Origin: Patescibacteria group bacterium
GTDB lineage: Bacteria; Patescibacteriota; Minisyncoccia; Phycocordibacterales; UBA12445
Assembly: GCA_003504275.1 (NCBI GenBank)
Contig: DOAO01000009.1
Coordinates: 24,405 to 88,404, forward strand
Reading direction: 5' to 3'
Length of the DNA: 64,000 nucleotides
Shown here: positions 23,742-52,671 of the stretch, in pieces
How positions within the stretch are numbered: position 1 is the first letter of the stretch
Layout of the letters: every line of letters begins with the position of its first letter
The notes under the pieces: generated by a model
What the model was told of the DNA's origin: nothing
Seen by the model: the letters and a program-made list of their open reading frames with translations, nothing else
Databases searched by the model: none
Program-made: the position numbers and the translations under genes

Positions 23742-24485
23742 CTATCTGACTACGAAGGAAGTCCTAGCTGTAACCATAACCTCCTTCTCAATACTCTGTG
23801 TATCATACTGTCCATAATCAGAAACTTCTATGGAATTTGGAGCAAGTACCTGGACAACCCCACTTGAGGCTGCTTTCATCGCACCGATAGTTCTTCCGCC
23901 ACTCTTTGCCAACATTTCCGCTCTAGCTTTTGCATCTTTTACAGCCTCTCCCAGAAGACTTACGCGAAGCTCGGCCAATTTTGAATAATAATATTCAGGA
24001 GATTGATTTGAGAAAAATACCCCCCTATTTATTATATCTTGAGTATTTTTAGCAACATTCGTTATCTTAACAATATCATTGGAATTTATTGTTATGTTTT
24101 GCAAAAGAGAATACTCTCGTGGTCCCGCATTACCTGAAGGATTGTATTTATATATTTCATTTGTAAATATCGGGGTTGTTGTTATTTCGGATTCAAGAAT
24201 TCCTTTAGATTCTAAGAATTTTTTTACTATCGCAAGATCATCTACTAGATCAGCATAACCTTTCTTAAGATTTCCCTCTGTAACTGTCCTTGAGATAGAA
24301 GTACTCCATTTTACAGAATCAGAAGTTACTCTTTGTTTTGCTGAACCAGTAGTCGATAGAGTATTGTCAAAGGTTCTTATTAGATAAAAAGTATAAGTAG
24401 CACCCATTGCTGAGAGAAAAAGTCCGAGCGCCAATACTATGGCGGCGGTAACTATTTCATTTTTTGAAAATAAATTTTTTTCCAT
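23742..24485 (-). CDS. SIMPL-domain (DUF541) protein
   Basis: N-terminal TM/signal, then a SIMPL-like alternating pattern. Confidence 0.65.
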   Translation of the reverse strand: MEKNLFSKNEIVTAAIVLALGLFLSAMGATYTFYLIRTFDNTLSTTGSAKQRVTSDSVKWSTSISRTVTEGNLKKGYADLVDDLAIVKKFLESKGILESEITTTPIFTNEIYKYNPSGNAGPREYSLLQNITINSNDIVKITNVAKNTQDIINRGVFFSNQSPEYYYSKLAELRVSLLGEAVKDAKARAEMLAKSGGRTIGAMKAASSGVVQVLAPNSIEVSDYGQYDTQSIEKEVMVTARTSFVVR

Positions 24486-27711: not shown

Positions 27712-29361
27712 TTAATCTATTGTTAATCTGACCAATCTAATATCCTCAAAACTAAATCCGGCACCAAGTTTATTTTTTGCCGGAGAAAGAAGATACTTAC
27801 CTCCCTCTTTTCCTCCTTTAATGAGTGCTTCTTTTATTTTATTTTGCCTAGCAGAGCTGATTATTTTTGCCAATTTAGAAAAATCAAATTCAGGATTCGT
27901 TAATCTTATTTTTTCACAATGGTCTAATATTGTTCCCGTGTTTAAATCGCGTTCAACGCTTATTTCCAAAAGTGTTTTGCCTTCATCTAGCATCTTTTTT
28001 GTTATTTCATACGTGGTCAGCTTCTTCTTTTTTATTTTTTTGCCATGCGGAGATATTTTGTTTAAAAATTCCCCCTGCTTTTCTTTGATTATATCTAAAT
28101 CCATATTGCGAAGCTCTTCTCCATGTTCCAGTGACCTATCACTAAACTGTCTATCAAAATCAAGAACCTCTTCGTCCATCTTCAAAGCTACATCATTTAA
28201 ACCCGCCAAAAACAGCCCCTCAAGCGACCTTATTCGCGAAAGAGCCACATATCCCATTCCGTTCTCAAAAGCTCGAGATAGGTCAATTTGAGCACAATCA
28301 AGGCTCATTCCTTGGCTTTTGTGGACAGTTATGGCCCACGCTAAGCGTAATGGATACTGCCCTATTTGGGCCTTAATTTTACCATCTTCTTCTATGACCC
28401 AAGTGGCAGGTAGAACATTTATTATCTTACCCTTAGTCGTTCGAACCATGATTCCGGAGCTATCACAAGAGGTTACAATACCTTGTGTTCCATTGACATA
28501 ACCTTCCTCAAAATTATTTTTTGTAAACATTACTCTCGCATTTTTTTTAAGTCGCAATATTTCCGGAGACAAACATCCCTTCTTTAGGGTGGTTGCGAGA
28601 AATTCCTGTCCCTTGTTGGTCATTTCATACTCAAATACTTTTCCTGGGAGTTTTTGAAGTTCCTTTTCATTTTCCTCATCCACGTTCGCATTGTGGGTGT
28701 AAATTTTTGTAGGTTTTTCTTCTTCTTTAGGCTCCTTACCAAAACGAGTTTTCAATTTTTTAATAATTTCCGAAGATACGTTATTCTCTCTGATCGAGTT
28801 AAGAATTTCCAAAAAAGATTCATCGTTTTGTCTATGTTGTTCGTTAAGATAACATATTTTTGGAGATAAATTTTTCCAACTTTCTGAATGATATGCGAAA
28901 AGTGCTTCCCTTTCTCCCATTCTAGAGACAGGTGGGAGCTGGAAAAAGTCTCCGCAAAATATTACTTGTAGTCCACCAAATGGTAAATTATTCCTCTTAA
29001 AAGAGCGCAAAATCTGTTCCACCAAATCCAAGCGAAAATGATGAAGCATTGATATCTCATCAATAATGAGAACTTTTGCCCGTTCAAATCTCTTCCATAG
29101 ATAAGGCTTTTCTTCGAGACTCTCTAGGTCATAGGGCGAAAGCGAATCCCTTATCCCAAGCCCCGACCAGGCATGTATTGTCTGTCCACACATATGAGAA
29201 GCAGCGATACCTGTAGCTGCGGTAATCCCCACTTCAACATCATTATTTTTTAGATAATTTATATATTCATTTAAAAGGTGTGTTTTTCCGCTTCCGGCTG
29301 GACCGGTAATAAAAGCGTTATGCCCCATCTTTAATATGTCCAAGGCTTCCTTTTGTGTCAT
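27712..29361 (-). CDS. Pif1/RecD-family 5'-3' DNA helicase
   Basis: Walker A GPAGSGKTH, motif Ia ATGIAA, IIDEISM, FCGDFFQLPPV. Its stop lies 1 nt from the AlkD-like start. Confidence 0.8.
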   Translation of the reverse strand: MTQKEALDILKMGHNAFITGPAGSGKTHLLNEYINYLKNNDVEVGITAATGIAASHMCGQTIHAWSGLGIRDSLSPYDLESLEEKPYLWKRFERAKVLIIDEISMLHHFRLDLVEQILRSFKRNNLPFGGLQVIFCGDFFQLPPVSRMGEREALFAYHSESWKNLSPKICYLNEQHRQNDESFLEILNSIRENNVSSEIIKKLKTRFGKEPKEEEKPTKIYTHNANVDEENEKELQKLPGKVFEYEMTNKGQEFLATTLKKGCLSPEILRLKKNARVMFTKNNFEEGYVNGTQGIVTSCDSSGIMVRTTKGKIINVLPATWVIEEDGKIKAQIGQYPLRLAWAITVHKSQGMSLDCAQIDLSRAFENGMGYVALSRIRSLEGLFLAGLNDVALKMDEEVLDFDRQFSDRSLEHGEELRNMDLDIIKEKQGEFLNKISPHGKKIKKKKLTTYEITKKMLDEGKTLLEISVERDLNTGTILDHCEKIRLTNPEFDFSKLAKIISSARQNKIKEALIKGGKEGGKYLLSPAKNKLGAGFSFEDIRLVRLTID

Positions 29362-29440: not shown

Positions 29441-29866
29441 TTATTGATTTTTCTTAACAAATGATTCTACGTGAGAAATGGCATCATCGATATTAGTATA
29501 TGATGCCACAAAAAAATCATCACAGCCCGAGATCATTGCTGAAATTTTTTTGTCGTTATTTTTATGGATACACAAAATAGGCTTTTTTTGATGTTTAGAC
29601 TCATTAAGCTCTATACCCACTCCATGGCTAGGAGAAGTTATTTCTGCAACCACAAAATCAGCTTCTTTGAGCCACCTCATATCACGAGACTCTATCTCTT
29701 TGTCAGTTAATTTTTTTTCTTTGTGAAGCATTTTTTCATTACCAACATGTTCCGTTAAAACAATATAGCGTTTTTTAAGCTCCTTAATTATTCTGAGATA
29801 ATTTTTCCTATCTGCTTCGGCCCCGCGTATTGAACCAGCAAAATATATTTTTATGTCCTTATTCAT
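29441..29866 (-). CDS. 2'-deoxynucleoside 5'-phosphate N-hydrolase (DNPH1/Rcl-like; nucleoside deoxyribosyltransferase fold)
   Basis: Close match to the DNPH1 pattern: YFAGSIRG...VLTEHV...DFVVAEITSPSHGVGIEL...KPILC...ISAMI. Confidence 0.8.
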   Translation of the reverse strand: MNKDIKIYFAGSIRGAEADRKNYLRIIKELKKRYIVLTEHVGNEKMLHKEKKLTDKEIESRDMRWLKEADFVVAEITSPSHGVGIELNESKHQKKPILCIHKNNDKKISAMISGCDDFFVASYTNIDDAISHVESFVKKNQ

Positions 29867-38427: not shown

Positions 38428-40032
38428 ATGGAAACAGAAAACAAAAAGGCATATTTAATAGGGGGTGGTATAGCATCACTTTCTGCTGCAGTATATTTGA
38501 TAAGAGATGGTGGTTTTTCAGGTAAAAATATTTATATACTAGAAAGCTCGGAAGACCTTGGAGGGAGCTTAGATGGTAAGGGTTCCCCAAAAGATGGATA
38601 TGTTTGTAGAGGAGGGAGAATGTTTTCTGAGGAAGTTTATAGTTGCACCTTTGATCTTTTGTCTTCGATTCCCCTTCACAAGAGCTCAAAAAAAACTCTC
38701 CGAGATGATTTTGTTAAATTTAATAAAGAGGTAAGAGTTAATGCTAAGGCTAGGCTTGTAGAAAACAGAAAAATAATCGACTCATCTTTTTTGGGACTTA
38801 GCGATATTGATCGAATTGGATTAGCAAATCTTATCTCTTTACCAGAATCTTTTTTTGATAGCGAAAGTTCAAAAATTAGCGACTACTTCTCCCCTTCTTT
38901 TTTTGAAACAAATTTTTGGTTTGAATGGTGTACAACTTTTGCCTTTCAGCCATGGCACAGCATAATAGAATTTAAAAGATACCTCCTTCGTTTCATTCAG
39001 GAATTTCCTCGTATAAATACAATGACAGGGGTCAAGCACACTAGATATACTCAATTTGATTCTATTGTTACTCCCGTTGCAGATTGGCTTAAAAATGAGG
39101 GTGTTATTTTTTTAATGAATCATCATGTCCTTGATCTTGAGTTCACAGAAAATAGAGACAGGGAAAAAGTAAAAAAAATAATATATTCAAAAGAACAACA
39201 CAAAGAGGAAATTATTGTTGAAGATAGCGATATCGTGTTATTTACAAATGGCTCTATGACTTCTAATTCGAGTCTCGGCAATAACAAAAGCGCCCCAGAA
39301 ACTAATACAAAGAAAGCCAACGACTCGTGGAGGCTTTGGGAAAAAATAGCTAAAGGGCGACCACACTTTGGTAAACCACACATATTTGAGGCCGATATAG
39401 ACAAAATGAAATGGGAATCATTTACGGTAACGCTTAAAGATAAAAAGTTTATAGAACTTATTAAAAAATTCTCAGATAATGAGCCTGGAACGGGCGGTAT
39501 CGTAACCTTTAAAGATTCAAACTGGCTTTTGTCTATTGCTATTCCAAATCAACCACATTTTGCAAATCAACCGGAAGATATATTTGTTTGGGGAGGATAC
39601 GGACTATCTCCAGATAAAGAAGGAAATTTTATTAAGAAAAAAATGTCTGAATGTACGGGTGAGGAATTAGTAATGGAGGTTTGTTGTTTATTGGGCTTTG
39701 ATAATGAATTGTCTGAAATTCTAGAGCATTCTGATTGTGTACCTTGTATGATGCCATACATAACAAGTCAGTTTATGCCTCGAAACAAAGGTGATCGTCC
39801 GCTTGTAATACCGGAAAAAACCGAGAATTTCACTTTTTTGGGACAATACTGCGAAATACAAGATGAAGTTGTCTTTACAGTAGAACAGTCGGTCAGATCA
39901 GCAATGATAGCTGTTTATGGTTTACTTGGAATAAATAAAGAAATACCAACTATATATAAAGGCGTATATGACCCTGAAGTAATTATGAATTTTATGAAAA
40001 CGGTTTTTAATAAAGAGGGATTATTTAAATAA
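38428..40032 (+). CDS. ohyA: Oleate hydratase (FAD-dependent fatty-acid double-bond hydratase, MCRA family)
   Basis: Extended colinear similarity to the streptococcal MCRA/oleate hydratase pattern: AYLIGGGIASLSAA...GGSLDG...GGRMF...FETNFWFEWCTTFAFQPWHS...RYLLRF...VPCMMPYITSQFMPR. Confidence 0.85.
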   Translation: METENKKAYLIGGGIASLSAAVYLIRDGGFSGKNIYILESSEDLGGSLDGKGSPKDGYVCRGGRMFSEEVYSCTFDLLSSIPLHKSSKKTLRDDFVKFNKEVRVNAKARLVENRKIIDSSFLGLSDIDRIGLANLISLPESFFDSESSKISDYFSPSFFETNFWFEWCTTFAFQPWHSIIEFKRYLLRFIQEFPRINTMTGVKHTRYTQFDSIVTPVADWLKNEGVIFLMNHHVLDLEFTENRDREKVKKIIYSKEQHKEEIIVEDSDIVLFTNGSMTSNSSLGNNKSAPETNTKKANDSWRLWEKIAKGRPHFGKPHIFEADIDKMKWESFTVTLKDKKFIELIKKFSDNEPGTGGIVTFKDSNWLLSIAIPNQPHFANQPEDIFVWGGYGLSPDKEGNFIKKKMSECTGEELVMEVCCLLGFDNELSEILEHSDCVPCMMPYITSQFMPRNKGDRPLVIPEKTENFTFLGQYCEIQDEVVFTVEQSVRSAMIAVYGLLGINKEIPTIYKGVYDPEVIMNFMKTVFNKEGLFK

Positions 40033-40507: not shown

Positions 40508-42076
40508 CTACCCTAAATCAATTATCTCGTGACGCGCACCGTTATATGTGTGCAGTATCTCCTTTAAACTGAAAGTGTGCTTTTCCTCATCATAACCCTT
40601 TATTTCATAAGTTATGAGATGAATCGGTCTTTCCCAGAAAAAATATAATTTTTCGAGGGCGCCGTTTTCATATTTAGGATCAAGCTCAAATCCGGAAAAA
40701 GAGTGCTTAATAAGAAGATGTCCTAAATCATTAAGATTTCCATCGACTACCGCAACGGCAGGTATGCCGAAGGTCGTATGTTGTCTTATTAGGATCTCTC
40801 TTATTACTTCCGGCCTATCTTCTGCAATAGAGTAAACCTCTTCTCCTGTCATGGGGTCTATCTCTGTTTGCCAAAGATACATTTGTTCATCGCGTATGAA
40901 TTCATCGTAGAAATAACTTTCGATAGCCATTCTATCGGAAAGCATCTTGCGAAGTCCTATTATCTTTTTTCTGCCTAAACCAAGTTTCTTATCCCAATTT
41001 CTTTTTTCTTCTTGGTCTCTGCATTTTTCCCATTCGTCGCCAAATCTTCCTTTATCCCAACGGTCTTCTATCATTTCCCAAAAGGCGGGACCGATGGAAT
41101 ATACGTTGAAACCTAAGCGACGCTTCTGGGTGACTTGTGCGTGAAATTGTATTGCTTCTTCGTGTTCGGCGGGGGTTATTATTTTTTCTTTGGCTAATTG
41201 CCTAAGTACCCTGACATGCCAGAATGTAGCCCAGCCCTCATTAAGTAACCTTGTTCTGAAATTGGGGGCCAATGCTCTCATTTGTTCACGAACTACGGTA
41301 ACAACATCTTTTACCCACGACTTCTTCATTTTTGGAGACTTCTCGATCATATATTTGAGAATGTCGTATTCGGGAACGGGGGGTGTATGTTGTTCGTAAA
41401 ACTGTATAAGCTTTTCTGTTTCCTCGATGTCTTTTTTGAGCTTTTCAGCTTCATCGTTATCGGTCGTAGCATCGAGAGCTTTTTGATATCTGTTGAGATT
41501 TTCCATTTCCGCAGAAAGATATCTTTCGCGTATTTCCTCTTCAGGTAAAGCATCAGAAAAAGGATCGGAATCCTGGTGGTATTGAAAAGCGATAGCGGCA
41601 TCTATAACTTTTTCGACTTCTTCTACGCCGTATTTCTTTTCATATTCCAAGAATCTTTTCTTTGCGCTTCTTGCTTCAATGGTTATGTCCGCGATACTTC
41701 TACTCTTCCTCATGAGCATATTAGCGAGGTGAAAGTCGACGTGGCCATAAACGTGCGCAAGTATGAGTACATTCAATGCAAAAGGATTTGTATCAACCAA
41801 CAAAGCTGTCGGATTATCGAAATTCCAGACAACCTCGTAAGGTATTCCATGTCCCGAGTGTTGATATTGAGTATTCTCCCTCTCAAAATTTCTACCGAAA
41901 CTCCAGTGAGAAAAATTAGTAGGAAGACTATAAGCCATGGCTTCTATCATTCTTTCGGCGGTTACTATCTCAAAGTTAATGTTTGTTGTTTCCAAGCCAT
42001 TTTCTTTGAAGATTTCATCCACCCTTTTTTCAATCTCTCCGAGTCTTTTTATTTCCTTGGCATTCATACATATCAC
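40508..42076 (-). CDS. SpoVR/YcgB family protein
   Basis: Size, position downstream of prkA and yhbH, and conserved SpoVR-family regions. Confidence 0.75.
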   Translation of the reverse strand: MICMNAKEIKRLGEIEKRVDEIFKENGLETTNINFEIVTAERMIEAMAYSLPTNFSHWSFGRNFERENTQYQHSGHGIPYEVVWNFDNPTALLVDTNPFALNVLILAHVYGHVDFHLANMLMRKSRSIADITIEARSAKKRFLEYEKKYGVEEVEKVIDAAIAFQYHQDSDPFSDALPEEEIRERYLSAEMENLNRYQKALDATTDNDEAEKLKKDIEETEKLIQFYEQHTPPVPEYDILKYMIEKSPKMKKSWVKDVVTVVREQMRALAPNFRTRLLNEGWATFWHVRVLRQLAKEKIITPAEHEEAIQFHAQVTQKRRLGFNVYSIGPAFWEMIEDRWDKGRFGDEWEKCRDQEEKRNWDKKLGLGRKKIIGLRKMLSDRMAIESYFYDEFIRDEQMYLWQTEIDPMTGEEVYSIAEDRPEVIREILIRQHTTFGIPAVAVVDGNLNDLGHLLIKHSFSGFELDPKYENGALEKLYFFWERPIHLITYEIKGYDEEKHTFSLKEILHTYNGARHEIIDLG

Positions 42077-43492
42077 CTACCTATTTTTCTTCAGAAATTC
42101 TCTGAGAACAGTAAAAACATGAGCCTTGTTGCTTATGGTTACAGCGATAAAAGGAAAACCATCTTTACCGGTAATAACCTCCATGGAGTCCATCCTGCCA
42201 CTTTCCGGATTTTCTATCTTGAGGTAAACCGTTTCAATAGGCCAATTACCTTTGATGTGGGAGATGAGATCGGCATCATTCGTAAAAGAAGAATATCCCC
42301 ATGATTTTTCCTCAAAACTTTCCTTAATGTTTGCAAAGCAAAACATATTAATACCGGAATCCAGCATTTTTTTCATTTCCTTGCCGGTTTTTTCCGGTTC
42401 GAAATCGTCTCCGTCGGAAAAGTAAAAAGCATAGACATTCCAGATATCCGTCGGATATTTGCTCTTTATAAGATCGTTAACGAGAGAAAAAGCAGTATGT
42501 CCGACAGTTCCGCCACTTTCCATTGTGCGGAAAAAATCTTTTTCTTCGATCAATCTAGCCGAGCTATGGTGAACGATAAATCTTATTTCAACATTGGTAT
42601 ATTGTCTGCGAAGAACCTGCACCAGCCAAAAAAGTATGGCTCTTGAAATATACTTCTTGTGATCACCCATAGAGCCGGAAACGTCGAGAATTGCGAAGAC
42701 GACAGCGTTCGTCTCTGATGTTTTTTTGTCCTGAACATCAAAGTAGCGCAGATCGCCGTTTCCGATTATAGGAAAAGGTTCTACCTGCTTTAAATCATGT
42801 TTAAAGTTTGGATCAAGAAGAAGTTGCTCTGCTTCATATAATCCGCCACCCTCTTGCTTTAGGGCAGCAAAACAATCAAGTTCGCTTCTGTCCTTGAACT
42901 TTTCCTGTAAAAGACCCATCAAAACCCAGAATGTTTTCATTGCATTTTTCGCGGTTGGTCTCTTTTTCAAAAGAACCATAGGACCGACTTTTTCCATTCC
43001 GGTTATTTTATATCCAAGAGAAACTTCAATTGTGGCAAGATCTTTTTTAAGGAGATTTGGAAGACCGAGATCTTCAAACATCATTTCAACGATCTCTTCG
43101 ACCGTGAATTCGCTTTCGATCATATCTTCACCGGGATCATTGCCCGCTTTCGATTCTCCGCCTTCTCCCTGTTGCTGTCCGGGTTTTCTTCCCATTTCGT
43201 CACCCTTTTTACCGGGACCCTGACCCATTCCTACTTTTTTGCCTTCGCCTTCGCCATCGCCCTCTCCATCTCCGCCACCATTACCACTTCTTTTGCCGTG
43301 ACGCAGATCAGGGATGCTCAAAGACTTTACGGGCACTTTTATTTTCTTGCCTTTGTTATCCTGAGTTATTATATCTTCCTGAGAAATTATCTCGGGAAGT
43401 TTCTTTTTTACAATTTCCTTTATTTTGTCGTGATGCCTTTGAACGTCTTTTGAAACATCTAAATTATCTTCCCTTGAATCAATTATAGGCAT
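42077..43492 (-). CDS. YhbH/YeaH (DUF444) protein with vWA-like domain
   Basis: The AILDVSGSMGD motif, a Gly/Glu-rich low-complexity insert, and a position between prkA and spoVR. Its stop abuts the spoVR start. Confidence 0.8.
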   Translation of the reverse strand: MPIIDSREDNLDVSKDVQRHHDKIKEIVKKKLPEIISQEDIITQDNKGKKIKVPVKSLSIPDLRHGKRSGNGGGDGEGDGEGEGKKVGMGQGPGKKGDEMGRKPGQQQGEGGESKAGNDPGEDMIESEFTVEEIVEMMFEDLGLPNLLKKDLATIEVSLGYKITGMEKVGPMVLLKKRPTAKNAMKTFWVLMGLLQEKFKDRSELDCFAALKQEGGGLYEAEQLLLDPNFKHDLKQVEPFPIIGNGDLRYFDVQDKKTSETNAVVFAILDVSGSMGDHKKYISRAILFWLVQVLRRQYTNVEIRFIVHHSSARLIEEKDFFRTMESGGTVGHTAFSLVNDLIKSKYPTDIWNVYAFYFSDGDDFEPEKTGKEMKKMLDSGINMFCFANIKESFEEKSWGYSSFTNDADLISHIKGNWPIETVYLKIENPESGRMDSMEVITGKDGFPFIAVTISNKAHVFTVLREFLKKNR

Positions 43493-43573
43493 TTTAATCC
43501 CTCCTTCTACAATTCAGAAAAAAACGGGGTTAGTAATTAACCAACCCCGTAATTTGAACTTACGATTTACGAT

Positions 43574-45574
43574 TTATTTCTTGAGGAATTTCCTCGCGTC
43601 TTCCAGTATCTCCTGAACACAGTGTTCACAGAAACCGGCCTTCTTTAATCCCTCTACGAGGTCTTCTTTGTGCTTCCTCGAGTTTTCCGCTTCTTTTCCG
43701 GTAGCGGGTTTTTCGGAAAGAGTGAGAATGTTTATCATATTGAGCTGCATTTCCTCGAGAAGAACTTTGTTTACCGCTTCTCTAAGCTTCGGGAAATCTT
43801 TCAAACTGAATTCCCCGTGCTCCTGTAAGTATTCATAATACATCTGAAGCAGTTCTCCCCTGGCGCTATTTTGCGCCTCGGTGCTATTTAAGCCCATATG
43901 CGTTTCTATTTTCCTCATTTCCGTGTAATCCGGCCCGGAAGCGTTTTCTTCGGTAACCCTCGGAGCGCTAAACTTCCTGCTTTTTTGGCAGTGAAGTTGT
44001 ACGTCTTTCATATAGCGCTTTGCTTTTTGAAGAGCTAAATCGCCATAACACGACAAGAAGGCAGTGTTGATAATTTCAATTACCCTTTCTTTATATTCCT
44101 TCGTTATCTCATTATTGAGAAGATTTTTCCAAGCCTTGATAAGTTCCGGGTTGACACCCATTAAATTATCAAAGTTTGCCAAGAGGAAAGATATTGCTTT
44201 TTTAGGAGTGAGACATTTGCATCCTTTATCGGATACGATTGCCTTACTTAAGGCGGACATTATGTCTCTCGGACTTATTCCGAACATTCCGTCTTTTTTG
44301 GACCAGTCGTCACTTGCTTTGCCTCTTTCGATCACTGATTTTATGTCCAAGCGCTTTTCAGCGATGGATTCAACGATCTGCCCGTTTAAAAATTTTGCCT
44401 TTTCTATAACGCTGGAAAAATTGTTATCGGGATTAAGGCGCGACGATATCGCAAAAAGAGCTACGAGCTCAAGTGTCTCCGGACTAATGTGAGTTTTCAC
44501 ATTCGCCTGATTTATGAGTTTCTTGTATATCTCAACCTCGTCTTTGATGCGAAGTGCATATCCAAAAGGTATAGCGTAAATTCTGCTCTGAAGAGCTTCG
44601 TGAGCCGAGTCACTTGCAAACCATTTAAAACCTACGATGTTGCAGTGTCCCAAGACCACTGTGTCTATATCAAGTGGCGCCATATTGGAGCCGGGAACAG
44701 CGAGTAATCCTTCTTCGTTAAGGGTTATGAAAACCCACAGAATTTTAGGATCGATACCCTTTTTAACGAATTCAACACCCTCTACGAGACCGCGATTTCC
44801 ACGAGGAATGGCTCCGTTAAACGTAAAAGCTTCGGGGTCATCATATCCCCTCTTGGGATTATAAGTGACCGCCGGGTTCTCTTTTGCTGTAATATCTGAG
44901 ATATCCTGAGCTTTTTCGTCTGCGGGTTCAAATCTGCCGATACCCCTCATTTTTCTTCTTGAAATACTGAAGGTTTCAACGGGGATATCGTAGTAACCTG
45001 TCGGACCGCCTTTTTCTTTATATTCTTCTAATTTGGCGCGACATTTTGCGCAAAGGTCTCCCTTTATTTTTATCCCGAGCTCTCTTTCGAAATCCTCTCT
45101 CATATTCTGAGGCAAGAGATGCAAGGGTTCCTCGTTTATAGGACATCCCTGGATTTTATACATCGGAATATCTCTGTATGACTCAAGACCTGATTTCAGG
45201 ATCTCAAGAAAAGAGCTTTTGCCCGATGCGGGGGGTCCAAAAAGAAGAAGGACTTTTTTTCCCAGAGCCAATCCGTTTGCTCCGGCTAAGAAAAATTCCA
45301 TAACCTCGGAAACTGAGGAGGTTACTCCTTTTAAGTGTTGTTCGAAAAAGGGATACCCCTTTTTAACTCCGAAAAATTCGCGGTCGACCGGAGAAAGTTC
45401 TTTTTCTCCGCGCCCCAGAATCATTGAGAAGATTCTTTGGGCAGAAAATTGAGCAATCTTAGGGCTTTCTTTCAAAAGCCCGAGGTATTCCTCAAAGGTT
45501 ATTACTTTGTTCTCTTTACGTTCCAATTTTCTTTCCTGGTCTTTTTTGATGAGATCGTCAATGATATTCGCCAT
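43574..45574 (-). CDS. prkA: PrkA family serine protein kinase (AAA+ N-terminal, kinase-like C-terminal domain)
   Basis: The LLLFGPPASGKSS P-loop, 666 aa, conserved operon context. Confidence 0.85.
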   Translation of the reverse strand: MANIIDDLIKKDQERKLERKENKVITFEEYLGLLKESPKIAQFSAQRIFSMILGRGEKELSPVDREFFGVKKGYPFFEQHLKGVTSSVSEVMEFFLAGANGLALGKKVLLLFGPPASGKSSFLEILKSGLESYRDIPMYKIQGCPINEEPLHLLPQNMREDFERELGIKIKGDLCAKCRAKLEEYKEKGGPTGYYDIPVETFSISRRKMRGIGRFEPADEKAQDISDITAKENPAVTYNPKRGYDDPEAFTFNGAIPRGNRGLVEGVEFVKKGIDPKILWVFITLNEEGLLAVPGSNMAPLDIDTVVLGHCNIVGFKWFASDSAHEALQSRIYAIPFGYALRIKDEVEIYKKLINQANVKTHISPETLELVALFAISSRLNPDNNFSSVIEKAKFLNGQIVESIAEKRLDIKSVIERGKASDDWSKKDGMFGISPRDIMSALSKAIVSDKGCKCLTPKKAISFLLANFDNLMGVNPELIKAWKNLLNNEITKEYKERVIEIINTAFLSCYGDLALQKAKRYMKDVQLHCQKSRKFSAPRVTEENASGPDYTEMRKIETHMGLNSTEAQNSARGELLQMYYEYLQEHGEFSLKDFPKLREAVNKVLLEEMQLNMINILTLSEKPATGKEAENSRKHKEDLVEGLKKAGFCEHCVQEILEDARKFLKK

Positions 45575-46667: not shown

Positions 46668-46700
46668 AAAAAAAGGCGGAAAAGTTTTTTCTTTTCCGCC
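46668..46700 (-). terminator. Terminator downstream of pncB
   Basis: ggcggaaaag-ttttttc-ttttccgcc hairpin with a T-tract on the minus strand. Confidence 0.55.
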
Positions 46701-46710
46701 ACTGTATTTT

Positions 46711-47952
46711 TTAATACCTACATTCCTCAGAAACATTATTTGTATAACCGCAAACTCTTTTATAGCGACTTACTTCCAACTTTTCGCCAATTGCCTTTGC
46801 TAAATTATCACTCAACTTAACCAAAGGTTCTCCGTTTGCCAAAATGGCCTTTATAACAAGAGACAAGGCGAGAAAACCGAGATCATTAGTCAGATTGGTT
46901 CCCCATCCAAAAGTATATTTTATCCGCCCTTTAAAATGATCGGCTATTTTTATTATTAAATCTATATCAAGCCCATCACTAAAAACGATAAGTTTGCTAG
47001 TCGGATCAATCCCGTGGTATTGATAAAATTTAATGATCTTCTCTCCAAACTCAATCGGATCGCCCGAATCATGGCGAAAGCCTTTCCAATTACGAGCTTG
47101 TTCCACGGTCATCTGCTTGAGGAAGAAATCACTTCCAAATGTATCGGGAAGAGCAATTGATAATCCCCATCCATATTGATTCCACCAATCATTAAGTACG
47201 ATATCTACTGAATTGAGTATTCCTTCATCTGATTTTTTCTGCCCCATAAGACCGGCAACAATCATGAATATTTCATGCGCGTTGGTTCCCATGGGGAGAA
47301 TACCATGCTTCATAGCAAGAAAGGTGTTTGATGTTCCCAAAAACTGGCTAGCGGGAAGTTCATCGATTAATGTTTCCACGACATAATCCTGAACACTCTT
47401 ATTGAAACGTCTACGCGTACCAAAATCAGTAAATGTTATATCTGGCTTCGATTTCAGTTTTTTTATCTTCTCCGCTAATTTAAGCCTCATGACAGCATAT
47501 ACACATTCTCTTTCAAATTTACTCATTTTTCTTAAAAGAGAGCGGTAATAGAGCTCATTCACAATACTCAGGGCAAGTGTTTCCCAATAAATCACTTCAA
47601 CCCATTTACCGGAAAATTTTAAACCAATATCTCCGTCTAATATTTCTAGTTTATAGTCTGGTAATTTTAAATTGGAAAGAAAAGAAAGATAACTCTCGGA
47701 AAACATCCTGTCCTGATACTCATTCGTACCGCGAAGGTAGTGAATTTCAGTTTTATTAAAATGTAAAGTCTTAACGTGATCTAACTCTCGTCGTAACTCA
47801 TTCATATTAACATGATCAGCGAGACGGATGCCTTTTGTCCTATTTTTAAAAGCGTAAGTTATAACAGTATCGGGATATTTATTGAACACTAATTGCCCCA
47901 TCGTAAATTTGTAAAAATCTACATCAAGGAGCGATTTAATTATCGGTTCCAT
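46711..47952 (-). CDS. pncB: Nicotinate phosphoribosyltransferase
   Basis: The LLDVDFYKFTMGQ N-terminus and NAPRTase length and organisation. Confidence 0.85.
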   Translation of the reverse strand: MEPIIKSLLDVDFYKFTMGQLVFNKYPDTVITYAFKNRTKGIRLADHVNMNELRRELDHVKTLHFNKTEIHYLRGTNEYQDRMFSESYLSFLSNLKLPDYKLEILDGDIGLKFSGKWVEVIYWETLALSIVNELYYRSLLRKMSKFERECVYAVMRLKLAEKIKKLKSKPDITFTDFGTRRRFNKSVQDYVVETLIDELPASQFLGTSNTFLAMKHGILPMGTNAHEIFMIVAGLMGQKKSDEGILNSVDIVLNDWWNQYGWGLSIALPDTFGSDFFLKQMTVEQARNWKGFRHDSGDPIEFGEKIIKFYQYHGIDPTSKLIVFSDGLDIDLIIKIADHFKGRIKYTFGWGTNLTNDLGFLALSLVIKAILANGEPLVKLSDNLAKAIGEKLEVSRYKRVCGYTNNVSEECRY

Positions 47953-47962
47953 TTTTACCTCC

Positions 47963-48568
47963 CTACTCTATGTCCTTCAAAAAAACTTCTTTAACACCAT
48001 AAAGCTCCAACTTCTTTTTCATTTTTTCGATATCACCATAAGGCGGTGGAACAGAACGTGTAAGATCTTCGATAACATACACCTCAAACCCCTGACAAGC
48101 ATAAGAGATTGCCGATTCACCTACACAATGTGTATAGGCCCAGCCCACGAGAAAAATCCTTCTAATCTCGGCAAACCTCAATCTTCTTACGTGACTTGAA
48201 AATTGAGAGCTAGTTGCGATGGAATAACTGATAATGCTTGAATCATTTCCTTTTTTAATATTCTCATCTGCGGTATCGTAAACCGGGAGCAATTCTGTAA
48301 TATATTTTTGACCGGGGGTTGAGACCACGCAGTGCTCACCAAAAATTCCAAATTCAATGTGGTTTGTGCCGTGCTTATCTTCTGTTGTAACGTGACGCTT
48401 AAATTTTTTACACACTTCTTTTATTCCGGCAACAATAACCTCATTAGAAGATTCGCCTGGAACTCCCTTTACATAAAGTTTACCATCTTCGAGAATAAAA
48501 TCGTTTTGCGCATCAATTATTACCAAAAGATCTTCCTGACCAATAATCAAGTTGTTTCTTTGAACCAT
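47963..48568 (-). CDS. pncA: Nicotinamidase / isochorismatase-family cysteine hydrolase
   Basis: LLVIIDAQNDF (catalytic Asp), a catalytic Cys later in the protein, adjacent to pncB. Confidence 0.75.
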   Translation of the reverse strand: MVQRNNLIIGQEDLLVIIDAQNDFILEDGKLYVKGVPGESSNEVIVAGIKEVCKKFKRHVTTEDKHGTNHIEFGIFGEHCVVSTPGQKYITELLPVYDTADENIKKGNDSSIISYSIATSSQFSSHVRRLRFAEIRRIFLVGWAYTHCVGESAISYACQGFEVYVIEDLTRSVPPPYGDIEKMKKKLELYGVKEVFLKDIE

Positions 48569-48697
48569 AACTTCCTCCTTTTTCTTTATACCTGTATCTG
48601 TATTGAATTTTAAAAGAACATAAAAGAACTAAATTTGCTATCACACCTTACTTTATTAACTGTTTATGTCAATTATTTTTGGGTATTTAACAATAAA

Positions 48698-49651
48698 TTA
48701 ATCTACTAAATTCATATTTACAAGATCCTCTCTTTTAACTGATGGTATTGGTAAAATCTTATGGCGTGTTAATTTTTCAATATCACGCAAAAACAAAACC
48801 GTTTCCACCTTTTCCATATCTCCATACTTTTTTGTTAATTCTTGGATATTTATTTTCGAATTTTTTCCCGTGATAACTCCGTTCTTAATATCTTCTCTCC
48901 ACGCCCATGCAATATTACCTTCTTTTGAACCGTCTGACGCACCATAGGAAATTTTAATTTTATAACCAAGATCATCAGCCCATTTTGTAAGTTGAGACTC
49001 ATCGTTGTGTCTATCTCCTTTTCCCTCAAGATCGGCTGATGGTAATTTAATTACAATTCTTTCCGGAACACCCATATAATGCGCCAACTGTCTTACCTCC
49101 GCCTTATTAAGCCCCGCAAGTATATTATTATCTACTGCACCATCTCCATATTTATCAAAATAGCGAAGAAATCCATCCTCTTCCCCGTTTCCAGTACCAA
49201 AAATTCTACCCCTTCCTCCGTCGATTGCTTTTGAAATAAAACCCGCCAAAGGAGTGGTAAAACGAGACTTTAAACTAGAATAAGCACTTGTAAAACCGGA
49301 ATCATCCGCAAAAACGCTATTTTCATCATAAAAGCCTAAACTATTTTTTTTGAATTCCTTTTTAATTTTCTTAATTAATTCATCGTATAAGTCATTTAAA
49401 TCTAAACTTATTAATTGAAAACCAAATTTATTCCTCAATAACTCAACATCCTTTTTGTGTTTTTTGTCGCTTTTAATATCCCTATACATTCCGACAACAT
49501 TTTTAGGACCATACGCCCCGCAAAGTATCGCAATGACAAGCGAAGAATCTATTCCACCGGAAACAGCAACAAAAACTTTTTTACACCCCTTTCCTAATTC
49601 ACGTGCGCGTTCTATTAATAATTCTTCTGTTTTTTTAAAATCCTTAATCAT
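48698..49651 (-). CDS. nadE: NH3-dependent NAD+ synthetase
   Basis: PP-loop SGGIDSS and NadE C-terminal features. Confidence 0.8.
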   Translation of the reverse strand: MIKDFKKTEELLIERARELGKGCKKVFVAVSGGIDSSLVIAILCGAYGPKNVVGMYRDIKSDKKHKKDVELLRNKFGFQLISLDLNDLYDELIKKIKKEFKKNSLGFYDENSVFADDSGFTSAYSSLKSRFTTPLAGFISKAIDGGRGRIFGTGNGEEDGFLRYFDKYGDGAVDNNILAGLNKAEVRQLAHYMGVPERIVIKLPSADLEGKGDRHNDESQLTKWADDLGYKIKISYGASDGSKEGNIAWAWREDIKNGVITGKNSKINIQELTKKYGDMEKVETVLFLRDIEKLTRHKILPIPSVKREDLVNMNLVD

Positions 49652-49740
49652 TTATCCTGTTTAGTAAAAATTGAATAATAAACTCTAATTATCAACTAAA
49701 ACATCTCATCCGTTCGACCGACCACATTGATTTATTTTCA

Positions 49741-51372
49741 TCATTTCAATTTAAACTTTTTTAAAGTCTCATTTATCTTATTTATGCGGTCCTTGATCGT
49801 CCCCGAAAGCAGAATGAAAGAAACGCCTCTCTTATTTAAGTCTTCTATTATTTGACGTTGAAATATTTCTCTGTGTTTTGCCCCTGAACGTGTCCCATCT
49901 TCTACATATGGAATATCCGTATCACAAACAAAAACAAGGTCATATCTTGATTCACTTTCTTTAGCCAATCTAGAAAGTTCCGGGTGTGCGTCACCATGAT
50001 AGAATCGGCTAAACATCTCGGTTGTTATTGCATTTGAATCAACAAATAAATATTTATTGGCTTTCTGTAATAATTCTTCTTCCTTTTCTAAATGAATATT
50101 TGCCAGTTCTACAAGTTGCTCTTTGGAAAGTTTTCCTTCTGTATTATTTTTTTCCCAATACTCTCTACCATACTCCGGCATCCACTCGGTCTTGTGTTCT
50201 TTTGCAACTTCTTCAGCAATAGTTGTTTTACCGGTAGACTCCGCGCCCAAGAAAACTATTTTTTTGATAAAATCCCTATAGACAATTGGGTGTAAATAAT
50301 CTCTATATTCGTGAGGATTAGAACGCACCTTTGTTCCTGAAATGGGAATTATATTCCTATTCTGATCAACGCAAATATTTTCAGCACCAAGGGCTTTGCT
50401 TATATAGTCTCCGTACCATTCACTCGAAAAAAGATGAGTGATGGGTTCGGGTAAGTGTTCTCTAATAAATTCTTCATGCTGACGCATTATTTCTGGATCT
50501 TCTTTTGAATCAGGCGGTCCGGACGGAACCTCTAGAACATGTACCTGGGGGTAAATTTTTCTGATCCATTCTGCACGTGTTTTGAGCGGAATATCAATCA
50601 CTTGTGGACAATCATATATCATCACATAAACCATATCTGTATTTTTCAAGGCAGCTTCCACTAAAGACTGATGTCCTTTATGAAATGGTGCAAATTTACC
50701 AAGCACTAAACCATGTTTAATATTCGCTCCTTCATTTTTCCATTTTAAATATCCGGACACGGCGAGTATTAAGAAAATTACGTATTCTAACGCAATGAAT
50801 TTTACACTCTGCTCGTAATATAGCCACACACCAATAACGTCAACTGTTATCCAAAGATACCAACATTCTATTTTTCTTTGGGCCATTAAAATGGTCGCCA
50901 CAAAACTCATGATAGTGGTAAGTGCGTCAAGAAAAGGAAATGCGGCGGGTATCGGGAAATAAGCTGGAAAATATAAATGTATATTGCTCATAAAAGAACC
51001 CACGATAACTGTTCCAAGCAGTATAACTACAAGATATATAGTGTTTTTTCTAAAAGTATTTGGCGTAATTTGCAACTCAGCATCTTTACCTGTTTCTTTC
51101 TTGTTTTTAGATGGTAACCAAAGCCACCAACCATAAAAACTCGCAAAAAAGAAATATATTTGCTCAAAAAGATCGGAATAAAGCTGTATCTGATAAAAAA
51201 GGAATATATAAAAAACAATTCCCACTAATCCAACTGGCCATGTCAAAATTTTATTTTTTACAGCCAACCATACACACCAAAGATTAAAAATCGTTCCAAT
51301 AAATTCTACATAGCTCATTTGATAACCCCAAAAAGTGAAAATTATCGTATTTATACTAAGCAAGTTTTCCAT
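49741..51372 (-). CDS. pnuC-nadR: PnuC::NadR fusion protein (nicotinamide riboside transporter fused to NMN adenylyltransferase and ribosylnicotinamide kinase domains)
   Basis: N-terminal ~190 aa are a multi-TM PnuC. Then the NMNAT motif GLVLGKFAPFHKGH. Then the kinase P-loop FLGAESTGKTT. Confidence 0.8.
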   Translation of the reverse strand: MENLLSINTIIFTFWGYQMSYVEFIGTIFNLWCVWLAVKNKILTWPVGLVGIVFYIFLFYQIQLYSDLFEQIYFFFASFYGWWLWLPSKNKKETGKDAELQITPNTFRKNTIYLVVILLGTVIVGSFMSNIHLYFPAYFPIPAAFPFLDALTTIMSFVATILMAQRKIECWYLWITVDVIGVWLYYEQSVKFIALEYVIFLILAVSGYLKWKNEGANIKHGLVLGKFAPFHKGHQSLVEAALKNTDMVYVMIYDCPQVIDIPLKTRAEWIRKIYPQVHVLEVPSGPPDSKEDPEIMRQHEEFIREHLPEPITHLFSSEWYGDYISKALGAENICVDQNRNIIPISGTKVRSNPHEYRDYLHPIVYRDFIKKIVFLGAESTGKTTIAEEVAKEHKTEWMPEYGREYWEKNNTEGKLSKEQLVELANIHLEKEEELLQKANKYLFVDSNAITTEMFSRFYHGDAHPELSRLAKESESRYDLVFVCDTDIPYVEDGTRSGAKHREIFQRQIIEDLNKRGVSFILLSGTIKDRINKINETLKKFKLK

Positions 51373-51411
51373 TTGTTATTGTAATTATTACACTAATTAA
51401 TAATAAAAAAA

Positions 51412-52092
51412 TTAAACAATCTCTACATTCTTTGGTCTTCTATCGGTAAAAACATAAAGACTAGCCGGTCGGTTAGCCATTCCCCTTTTTTCTCTCCCTA
51501 GTGTTTTAACTAAATTTAAAGAAAAAAGTTTCTTTCTAAAATTTCTTTTATCTAATTTATTATCAAGAATTATCTCGTAAGTCTTTTGAATCTCACTTAA
51601 TGTAAATTCCTTGGGCAATAGGCTGTATACGATATTACTGTAACTCAATTTACTCTGCAGACGATTAATTGCAGAGCGAACCATCTCTTTATGGTCATAG
51701 GCGAGTTTGGGCAGTTTATCAACGGGAAACCACGAAATATCACCGTATTCTTTTGTGGTTTTTAAAATTAGTTTATCACTTGGTATCAATGCAAAATAAG
51801 CGACAGAAACAACGCGACCGAAAGGATCCCTATCAACTTCTCCAAAAGTATAGAGTTGTTCGAGATAAACATTTTCAATACCAACCTTTTCTTTTAAAAT
51901 TCTTTCCGCCGCACTGTCTACAGCCTCATCCAATTTAATTAATCCTCCAGGCATGGCCCAGTGTTCCTCATATGGCTTCTTTTTCATTTTAATTAAAAGA
52001 ACCTGAAGTTTTTCGTCTTTTATTGTAAAAATAACCACATCAGTGGCAACTACCGTGAATTTATATTTATTTTTAATAGATTTAATTTTCAT
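51412..52092 (-). CDS. Nudix-domain protein with C-terminal extension (NrtR-like NAD-regulon regulator candidate)
   Basis: Partly degenerate Nudix box GLIKLDEAVDSAAERILKEKVGI. About 80-aa basic C-terminal domain. First gene of the NAD salvage gene string. Confidence 0.55.
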   Translation of the reverse strand: MKIKSIKNKYKFTVVATDVVIFTIKDEKLQVLLIKMKKKPYEEHWAMPGGLIKLDEAVDSAAERILKEKVGIENVYLEQLYTFGEVDRDPFGRVVSVAYFALIPSDKLILKTTKEYGDISWFPVDKLPKLAYDHKEMVRSAINRLQSKLSYSNIVYSLLPKEFTLSEIQKTYEIILDNKLDKRNFRKKLFSLNLVKTLGREKRGMANRPASLYVFTDRRPKNVEIV

Positions 52093-52211
52093 ATTTAATT
52101 TTTGTTAGTGTCTATTATACACATACTATTCCTTTCTAAATAAATAGTCAACTCTCCACCTCATTTTGTCCCTAAGGTATTGGGATATTTATTTTAAAAA
52201 AATATTACAAA

Positions 52212-52241
52212 CCAAAAACCACCGAGAGCTCGGTGGTTTTT
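52212..52241. terminator. Bidirectional terminator
   Basis: ccaccgag-ag-ctcggtgg hairpin with flanking A and T tracts. Confidence 0.6.
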
Positions 52242-52251
52242 AAGCGCTTTT

Positions 52252-52671
52252 TTATTTTTCCCAGCGAAGGCTGAGAGTCTCGATTGCATCAGCCAGTCTA
52301 TCTAGCTTTGCATTCATTCCTTCAATCTGTCTCTTTATATCATCGTTGCCACCTCCGAAGCTTGGTCTAGAAGACCCTCTGTCTCCGAAATCTCTTCTCT
52401 GTGGTCTATCGCCTCCACTTCTACCACCTTTATTTCCGAAACAGTCACTGCAATATACAGGCTTCTCGCCTGTAGGCTTGAAAGGCACCTGACAGCTCTT
52501 CTGACACTCGCTACATACAGCATTGTGCATTTCGAACTCTCTTCTTTCTCCGCCCCTATCTCCCCTGTCCCCGAAACTCTTTCTACCAAAGCTCGGTCTT
52601 CCGCCAAAGCTTCTTCCTCCACCAGTGTTGCCACCGAATCTCTTTCCGCCTCCCTGATCGAATCTTGCCAT
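52252..52671 (-). CDS. Arg/Gly-rich (RGG/FGG repeat) protein with central CxxC-N17-CxxC zinc ribbon and C-terminal coiled coil
   Basis: Low-complexity RGG/FGGR repeats flank CSECQK...CSDC; likely nucleic-acid binding. Confidence 0.5.
   Translation of the reverse strand: MARFDQGGGKRFGGNTGGGRSFGGRPSFGRKSFGDRGDRGGERREFEMHNAVCSECQKSCQVPFKPTGEKPVYCSDCFGNKGGRSGGDRPQRRDFGDRGSSRPSFGGGNDDIKRQIEGMNAKLDRLADAIETLSLRWEK

Follow-up and report, generated by a model that had tools for sequence, protein, structure and literature searches.

Can a nicotinamide riboside (NR) transporter and the enzymes that act on its substrate reside in a single polypeptide, and how would such a gene be controlled? This question is raised by five co-directional open reading frames (ORFs), nrtR, pnuC::nadR, nadE, pncA and pncB in this order, found on the minus strand at positions 46711-52092 of a 64,000-nucleotide stretch of contig DOAO01000009.1 (assembly GCA_003504275.1). 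This whole stretch, 64 kb long, is called here the window. The host of the operon is the Parcubacteria / candidate phyla radiation (CPR) bacterium GW2011_GWF2_38_76, from groundwater. The coordinates of the five ORFs are exactly those given in an original prediction made from the sequence, and the gene identities proposed there were borne out by Pfam and NCBIfam profiles and by matches to solved structures. Taken as a whole, it is highly probable that the locus is an NrtR-repressed operon for the salvage of NAD (vitamin B3) and that it includes a genuine PnuC::NadR fusion.

A transporter and two enzymes in one open reading frame

A fused gene may be an artefact of assembly or sequencing, in which a frameshift or a missed stop joins two genes. 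The identical 543-residue product is, however, encoded on nine contigs from separate assemblies, obtained with different assemblers and from different samples, and a single ORF is kept in four orthologues sharing 72-80% identity (P0001-P0004; loci L001/L002, L003 and L004). The junctions of these orthologues have the same length and other codons and residues, with the frame open throughout, and the junction in the window has no long homopolymer run. What speaks for an artefact is that a third-party annotation (TPA) re-assembly of a near-identical genome carries a call of 297 residues (HBM45971.1, named 'cytidyltransferase') that spans residues 247-543 only, that pnuC and nadR are two overlapping ORFs in a close relative (L013, 75% identity), and that the two genes are separate in more distant CPR genomes. 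The two ORFs of L013 overlap by 25 nt at a run of eight A (704-711), where one extra A yields a fusion of 537 residues; because the split sits in this run and a single base restores the fusion, an error is more likely in the split form than in the fused one. With a continuous ORF, the same product on nine contigs and a junction kept in the orthologues, the fusion described in the original prediction is real, and an artefact, largely refuted, is very improbable.

The N-terminal half of the protein matched NMN_transporter (PF04973) over residues 20-213 (2e-51; 174.9 bits, cut-off 27.3) and TIGR01528 (107.9 bits, cut-off 42.45). It also matched the structure of the N. mucosa PnuC (4QTN; 5.6e-13) from chain residue 27 onwards, the latter protein having an extra N-terminal helix compared to that of the window. 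In the AlphaFold2 model of the fusion (pLDDT 80.9, pTM 0.62), transmembrane (TM) helices occupy residues 21-38, 44-61, 65-85, 107-129, 146-164, 169-187 and 191-216, and the long loop that separates helix 3 from helix 4 fits the 3+1+3 core of PnuC. Hydropathy and the positive-inside rule agree on the orientation given in Table 1, as loops 1, 3, 5 and 7 hold 10 lysine and arginine residues whereas loops 0, 2, 4 and 6 hold none. In the model, the seventh helix runs nearly straight into the first β-strand (220-225) of the nicotinamide mononucleotide (NMN) adenylyltransferase domain. The C-terminus of the transporter being predicted inside, the NadR half is therefore placed on the cytoplasmic side, where its function requires it. 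Nicotinamide riboside is the probable substrate, as suggested by the equivalog match of the PnuC half and by its fusion to an NR kinase.

The catalytic motifs of the NadR half are all intact. The HxGH, SxTxxR, Walker A, FVDSN and EDGTRSG segments align to the NadR structures 9X6F, 8X7F and 1LW7, the first two motifs are invariant across a 37-sequence alignment, and the kinase domain matched AAA_28 over residues 371-529 (5e-36, 124.8 bits). Judged by these motifs and by E-values of 1e-41 to 1e-21 against Protein Data Bank (PDB) entries, this half is a divergent member of the NadR family. The protein lacks the helix-turn-helix (HTH) domain found in the enterobacterial NadR: its match to NF005988 begins at profile position 54 of 411, and its N-terminus is the PnuC membrane domain. 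The fusion was deposited as KKQ82463.1 under the name 'Transcriptional regulator nadR', a misnomer because the protein has no HTH or DNA-binding domain, and this public annotation is corrected by the present analysis. Other fusions have been named 'HTH-type transcriptional repressor' by the Joint Genome Institute (JGI).

Fusions are rare: both domains were found in one protein in only a handful of cases among the best 120 and best 150 NadR/PnuC homologues. In the nearest GTDB genomes, which are CPR metagenome-assembled genomes (MAGs) and three genomes with other taxonomic labels, a pnuC that is 55-61% identical to that of the window stands beside a separate nadR that is 30-36% identical, and in the loci L005-L012 the two genes are adjacent or overlap, with overlaps of 4 nt to 47 nt. 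Compared to the window protein, the fusions P0047/P0100 are 30% identical in the PnuC half and 51% in the NadR half, and P0135 is 25% and 33% identical in the same halves; three further fusions (P0200, P0188 and P0190) have long linkers. The NadR half of the window is closer to free-standing NadRs, with up to 64% identity outside its own clade. These other fusions are too distant to go back to the same event as that of the window, and the architecture has therefore arisen repeatedly, in unrelated lineages.

A fusion in the reverse order, NadR-PnuC with a 13-residue linker (P0005, 562 residues), was also encountered on one 3.1-kb Logan contig. An N-terminus-out PnuC with seven TM helices is hard to square with a cytoplasmic N-terminal NadR, so that this ORF may be a read-through artefact or contain an extra helix; it was not used as evidence.

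Within the clade, the fusion is evolutionarily labile. In L014 (210-1875), which is close to L004, nrtR and the operator are followed by a nadR starting with MKKGLVLGKF, the PnuC half being precisely missing. The C-terminal two-thirds of this NadR are identical to the L004 protein and its N-terminal third is different, a mosaic that suggests recombination or a chimeric assembly. As for L013, its split could be due to an error in sequencing or to a true frameshift, or else both forms could be expressed through slippage. Since L013 is split and L014 is devoid of the PnuC half, the fusion is dispensable. Most likely, it would have arisen from an overlapping pnuC-nadR pair such as that seen in other CPR genomes, and would remain labile.

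NrtR and its predicted operators

The first gene of the cluster encodes a protein that matched the Pfam families NUDIX (2e-17; 63.7 bits, cut-off 21.1) and NrtR_WHD (4e-22; 78.6 bits, cut-off 27). Its Nudix box reads G-x5-E-x7-R-I-L-K-E-K-V-G-I in the translation, two of the three catalytic glutamates of REUxEE being replaced, in agreement with the degenerate box (RILKEK) and the non-catalytic NrtR-like regulator of the original prediction. The features of the NrtR family are found together here: a Nudix fold joined to a winged helix, a palindromic operator, and linkage to NAD genes with probable autoregulation.

NrtR family operators were described as 21-bp palindromes with a GT-N7-AC core (PMC2330246). 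By reading orthologous spacers, we found a palindrome, TAGTGT-N7-ACACTA, that constitutes the predicted NrtR operator. The shared operator expected from the original prediction was retrieved upstream of nrtR and in the spacer between nrtR and pnuC::nadR (Table 1), and not in the second region for which it had been proposed, 48569-48697. All eight upstream regions taken from four genomes align on the palindrome, downstream of TTGAC -35 boxes, and a -35 of the TTGAC type matching that of the promoter-like site before nrtR in the window aligns in L001, L003 and L004. Within the window, five matches with at most two mismatches were counted compared to 1.4 expected. Perfect palindromes occur four times in the distant loci L005-L012, which add up to 88.6 kb, compared to 0.008 expected from shuffles. 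The palindrome, often perfect, lies directly upstream of pnuC, nrtR or nadB in L006, L007, L008, L012, L013 and L014. Because operator 1 overlaps the -10 element and the likely transcription start, autoregulation of nrtR is implied. nrtR is the first gene of the operon, and the synteny is conserved in L001, L003, L004 and L014. A CPR-wide operator consensus is proposed here from these alignments; with it, the candidate phyla radiation would be added to the groups having an NrtR regulon with the common operator core.

Other candidate sites were set aside. Operator-like matches at 24485, 34980 and 35833 are at chance level, two of them lying inside ORFs and the third having no AC core, and a pattern with the wrong spacing, TGTA-N7-TACA, was not enriched (23 found, 23 expected).

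NrtR, with a Nudix fold deprived of catalytic glutamates, would bind the two palindromes through its winged helix and would, by analogy with characterised NrtRs, be released from DNA as ADP-ribose, a product of NAD consumption, builds up. Repression would occur by promoter occlusion, as in characterised homologues. It should be noted that, among solved structures, the arabinose regulator BtAraR (5BS6, 8e-45) is the best homologue, ahead of the S. oneidensis NrtR (3GZ5, 1e-29), the matches covering residues 10-218; this makes the effector uncertain. Moreover, the protein scored 168.7 bits against the NCBIfam equivalog of ADP-ribose-responsive regulators (NF050029), under its cut-off of 400, and the paper describing the NrtR family itself reports diverse effectors (PMC2330246). 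The regulator might then answer to a sugar or sugar phosphate, as BtAraR does, or to NAD or NMN. The Bacteroides thetaiotaomicron AraR shares the Nudix and winged-helix architecture; it differs in sensing arabinose and controlling sugar genes, whereas all operator-linked genes in the window and in its relatives are NAD genes (nrtR, pnuC, nadR and nadB). Nearby genes for the use of arabinose or xylose were looked for in a profile scan of the window ORFs, and none was found. An effector other than ADP-ribose is thus unlikely, and ADP-ribose is retained as the proposed signal.

The spacer between nadE and pncA contains, in place of the NrtR palindrome, the direct repeat GTTCTTT-N3-GTTCTTT, perfectly kept at the same location in L001 (10622-10638) and L003 (10617-10633), hence in three genomes in all. 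It may be bound by a second regulator acting on pncA-pncB, or belong to an internal promoter. The consensus fold of the pncA leader reaches just -2 kcal/mol, and a structured RNA or riboswitch was therefore rejected at this place. No NAD riboswitch (nadA or pnuC motif) was detected in the locus by Rfam at gathering or E<=1 thresholds; three weak Rfam matches in the locus correspond to terminator hairpins or chance matches.

Besides the 297-residue call of the TPA genome and the closeness of the regulator to BtAraR, several results weigh against an NrtR-repressed operon with a genuine fusion. The PnuC half is modelled at moderate confidence only (pLDDT about 55-85), and the NadR half scored below the cut-offs of both NCBIfam equivalogs (TIGR01526, 197 vs 341; NF005988, 141 vs 201). 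No canonical promoter was detected in the 39-bp nrtR-pnuC spacer, and upstream of pncA the best candidate for an NrtR site has five mismatches in 12 positions. Finally, not all close relatives are fused, L013 being split and L014 PnuC-less.

The nicotinamide branch and de novo synthesis

The original prediction had called the NAD salvage complete. As read from the sequence, the NR branch is complete in one polypeptide, made up of PnuC, the kinase and the adenylyltransferase. In the second branch, PncA, PncB and NadE would recycle nicotinamide through nicotinate and nicotinate mononucleotide (NaMN). The triad of PncA, D19 (in IDAQNDF), K106 and C148, and its metal site, D64/H66/H79, align to those of solved nicotinamidases. 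NadE matched TIGR00552 (80.8 bits, cut-off 63.65) and NAD_synthase of Pfam (86 bits), and its form of about 317 residues is common in Patescibacteria. For this branch, completeness was overstated: PncA and PncB lead to NaMN, and no NaMN adenylyltransferase (NadD or the dual-specificity NadM) was found in the locus or among the scanned ORFs of at least 120 residues of the window, where the only cytidylyltransferase-like match is the NadR domain.

The conversion of NaMN to nicotinate adenine dinucleotide (NaAD) would most probably use a NadD encoded elsewhere in the genome. Alternatively, NadE could amidate NaMN directly to NMN, as a Francisella-type NMN synthetase for which a precedent exists (PMC3376133), and the NadR adenylyltransferase would then complete both branches with no need for NadD. 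Such a route would fit a 64-kb region in which no nadD was found; in addition, the fusion gene of relatives is directly followed or overlapped by nadE, and the NadE of the window is divergent, as its Pfam score indicates. However, in three relatives (P0318, P0334 and P0338; 484-527 residues) whose sequences are 61-62% identical to this NadE, the CPR-type enzyme of about 317 residues carries a NadD-type nicotinate-nucleotide adenylyltransferase at its C-terminus. Furthermore, the score of NadE against the Francisella enzyme 3FIU (37 bits) does not exceed its score against ordinary NAD synthetases (63 bits), and the region surveyed is 64 kb of the genome. Because this form of NadE is fused to NadD in three relatives, conventional amidation of NaAD with nadD located elsewhere is preferred, and the NadD-independent route is decidedly improbable.

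Genes for de novo synthesis (nadA, nadB and nadC) were not found in the window, which is part of one contig. In a Paceibacterota MAG (L006, 3377-12001 of JAGLID010000092.1), the order is nrtR-nadB-pnuC-nadR-nadA-(NadM-like, 177 residues)-nadE-nadK-nudix, with three NrtR operators. Because the regulon of L006 also includes nadA and nadB, the presence of pnuC-nadR does not imply that the de novo pathway was lost; this pathway and NR salvage appear to coexist in the Paceibacterota/CPR group. Auxotrophy is plausible for CPR bacteria. The host dependence or auxotrophy at which the original prediction had hinted is consistent with the Parcubacteria/CPR identity of the host.

Table 1. Features of the NAD salvage locus (coordinates are positions in the window)
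Feature	Coordinates	Strand	Description
Intrinsic terminator of the upstream CxxC-x17-CxxC zinc-finger gene	52212..52243	-	Stem of 14 pairs, then a T-run; 5' limit of the NAD unit
Promoter-like site before nrtR	52123..52151	-	TTGACT-17-TAGTAT; consensus match only
NrtR operator 1 (putative)	52106..52124	.	ATGTGT-ATAATAG-ACACTA on minus strand; abuts/overlaps the -10 and spans the likely nrtR transcription start
nrtR, 226 aa	51412..52092	-	Nudix-like effector domain with degenerate box; C-terminal NrtR winged-helix DNA-binding domain (aa 156-215)
NrtR operator 2 (putative)	51377..51395	.	TAGTGT-AATAATT-ACAATA on minus strand; in the nrtR-pnuC spacer, ends 4 nt before the pnuC::nadR ATG
pnuC::nadR, 543 aa	49741..51372	-	NMN_transporter, cytidylyltransferase HxGH region from aa 219, AAA_28
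PnuC half, aa 1-216	50725..51372	-	Seven TM helices, N-terminus out, C-terminus in (predicted)
Fusion junction, aa 211-219, WKNEGANIK	50716..50742	-	No stop, no long homopolymer run; same length in orthologues
NadR-type NMN adenylyltransferase domain, aa 219-365	50278..50718	-	GKFAPFHKGH (HxGH), ISGTKVR (SxTxxR)
Ribosylnicotinamide kinase domain, aa 369-543 and stop codon	49741..50268	-	Walker A GAESTGKT, VDSN Walker B-like segment, DGTRSG lid
nadE, 317 aa	48698..49651	-	Single-domain NH3-type NAD synthetase, PP-loop SGGIDSS
Direct repeat in the nadE-pncA spacer	48613..48629	-	GTTCTTT-N3-GTTCTTT; 10-bp period; single exact copy in the window
pncA, nicotinamidase, 201 aa	47963..48568	-	Isochorismatase fold; nicotinamidases are the best matches among solved structures
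pncB, nicotinate phosphoribosyltransferase, 413 aa	46711..47952	-	NF003704, 440 bits (cut-off 379)
Intrinsic terminator, 11 nt past the pncB stop	46675..46700	-	10-pair stem (6 GC pairs) followed by T7; 3' boundary of the NAD unit

Several other genes were also identified in the window. A Gly/Arg-rich CxxC-x17-CxxC treble-clef zinc-finger protein is encoded upstream of nrtR (52252-52671), while its homologues in L001 (12689-13132) and L003 (12673-13119) lie on the opposite side, downstream of pncB. Just downstream of MscL and DUF333 genes, positions 40508-45574 of the minus strand encode PrkA (AAA_PrkA and PrkA), a DUF444 protein (YeaH/YhbH-like) and a SpoVR-like protein, a trio that forms a conserved stress- or sporulation-associated module, found here in a Parcubacterium with a small genome. 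Other notable products are an MCRA/oleate-hydratase family protein (38428-40032; 4e-196), a nucleoside 2-deoxyribosyltransferase (29441-29866), a Pif1-like helicase with an HTH_40 domain (27712-29361) and a SET-domain protein (13161-13598).

Known systems and the role of the fusion

Regulons in which NrtR controls pnuC-nadR or pncAB-nadE follow a logic already described for Streptococcus, Hahella, Clostridium and others (PMC2330246). A close parallel in control is the nadR-pnuC-nrtR operon of Streptococcus (Firmicutes-1b, PMC2330246; S. mutans and S. sobrinus, PMC12282500 and PMC12735969), in which NR salvage by PnuC and an HTH-less NadR is likewise under NrtR and nrtR belongs to the operon. 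The streptococcal pnuC and nadR are separate genes with one of the divergent operator motifs, whereas the window has one polypeptide, the common GT-N7-AC core and nadE-pncA-pncB appended. In NrtR salvage I regulons, pncA, pncB, nadE and/or pnuC-nadR are also gathered in one NrtR-controlled locus; these carry nadD or nadM, whereas neither is present in the window locus, where no NrtR site can be recognised for the pncA-pncB part. The Paceibacterota locus L006 shares with the window the operator, the NrtR family and a PnuC that is 60% identical. By contrast, its pnuC and nadR are separate and overlapping, its operon also holds genes for de novo synthesis and one more adenylyltransferase, and its NadE is of the canonical 284-residue type.

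As to the proteins themselves, the PnuC and NadR of Haemophilus influenzae and Salmonella (NadR structure, 1LW7; PnuC structure, 4QTN) comprise the same NR facilitator, kinase and NMN adenylyltransferase, with the same catalytic motifs, and are likewise driven by metabolic trapping; they are separate proteins, and the enterobacterial NadR has the N-terminal HTH repressor domain that is absent in the window. In crystals, PnuC is found with three chains, and NadR forms dimers or tetramers in its structures. In other pairs of a Pnu transporter and a kinase, such as PnuT and thiamine kinase (PMC5749112), a facilitated-diffusion channel is also given its direction by cytoplasmic phosphorylation; such pairs are known as operon partners. 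No description of a covalent PnuC::NadR, or of another fusion of a channel with its trapping enzyme, was found in the searchable literature, while fusion sequences are already in public databases under NadR names. New here are the covalent PnuC::NadR architecture, its lability within the clade and the CPR-wide operator consensus, every component being already known.

The seven-helix PnuC, as a facilitator, would admit NR, and its last helix would pass almost directly into the HTH-less NadR in the cytoplasm. There, the kinase domain would convert NR to NMN, which corresponds to the metabolic trapping described for homologues, and the adenylyltransferase domain would convert NMN to NAD. The fusion would set a 1:1 stoichiometry and keep the trapping enzymes at the channel exit, with a possible kinetic benefit. 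Physical coupling of uptake and phosphorylation, as put forward in the original prediction, can reasonably be inferred. Channelling or gating through the tether is speculative.

A near-neutral origin fits the data about as well as channelling or gating. The fusion, although real, could have followed from the loss of a stop codon where pnuC and nadR overlapped and were coupled in translation, the genome being streamlined, and would then bring no gain in channelling or gating over co-expression. The gene overlaps seen in the relatives, a clade that toggles among fused, split and PnuC-less forms, and the rarity of fusions among the best-matching homologues are all compatible with such an origin, as are Pnu transporters that work by facilitated diffusion with soluble kinases (PMC5749112). 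Pointing the other way, fusions arose independently in unrelated lineages (P0047/P0100, P0135, P0200, P0188 and P0190), and in the window clade the fused form was kept over 20-28% protein divergence with a fixed and very short linker. We hold a near-neutral origin possible rather than probable.

The fusion might even be a vectorial machine, in which the channel hands NR directly to the tethered kinase/adenylyltransferase and the NadR half gates the channel by ATP or NAD. This is doubtful. If true, nature would here testify to the physical complex of PnuC and NadR that has long been proposed in Salmonella and would supply a ready-made construct for solving it, and the switching between fused, A-run-split and PnuC-less forms would represent an adaptive tuning of NR uptake.

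The physical association of PnuC with NadR has been debated since the Salmonella genetics of the 1990s. The same question underlies the classification of PnuC as a group translocator, TC 4.B.1 in the Transporter Classification (PMC7176098). In textbooks, PnuC with NadR exemplifies a facilitator for which metabolic trapping is the driving force, and the present findings overturn nothing in current understanding. The operator consensus is clean enough to be usable for the reconstruction of regulons in uncultured CPR bacteria. The fusion, conserved in a clade, topologically plausible and having arisen repeatedly, constitutes 'Rosetta-stone' evidence of close functional coupling between PnuC and NadR, and makes both available as a single chain for work on structure and transport.

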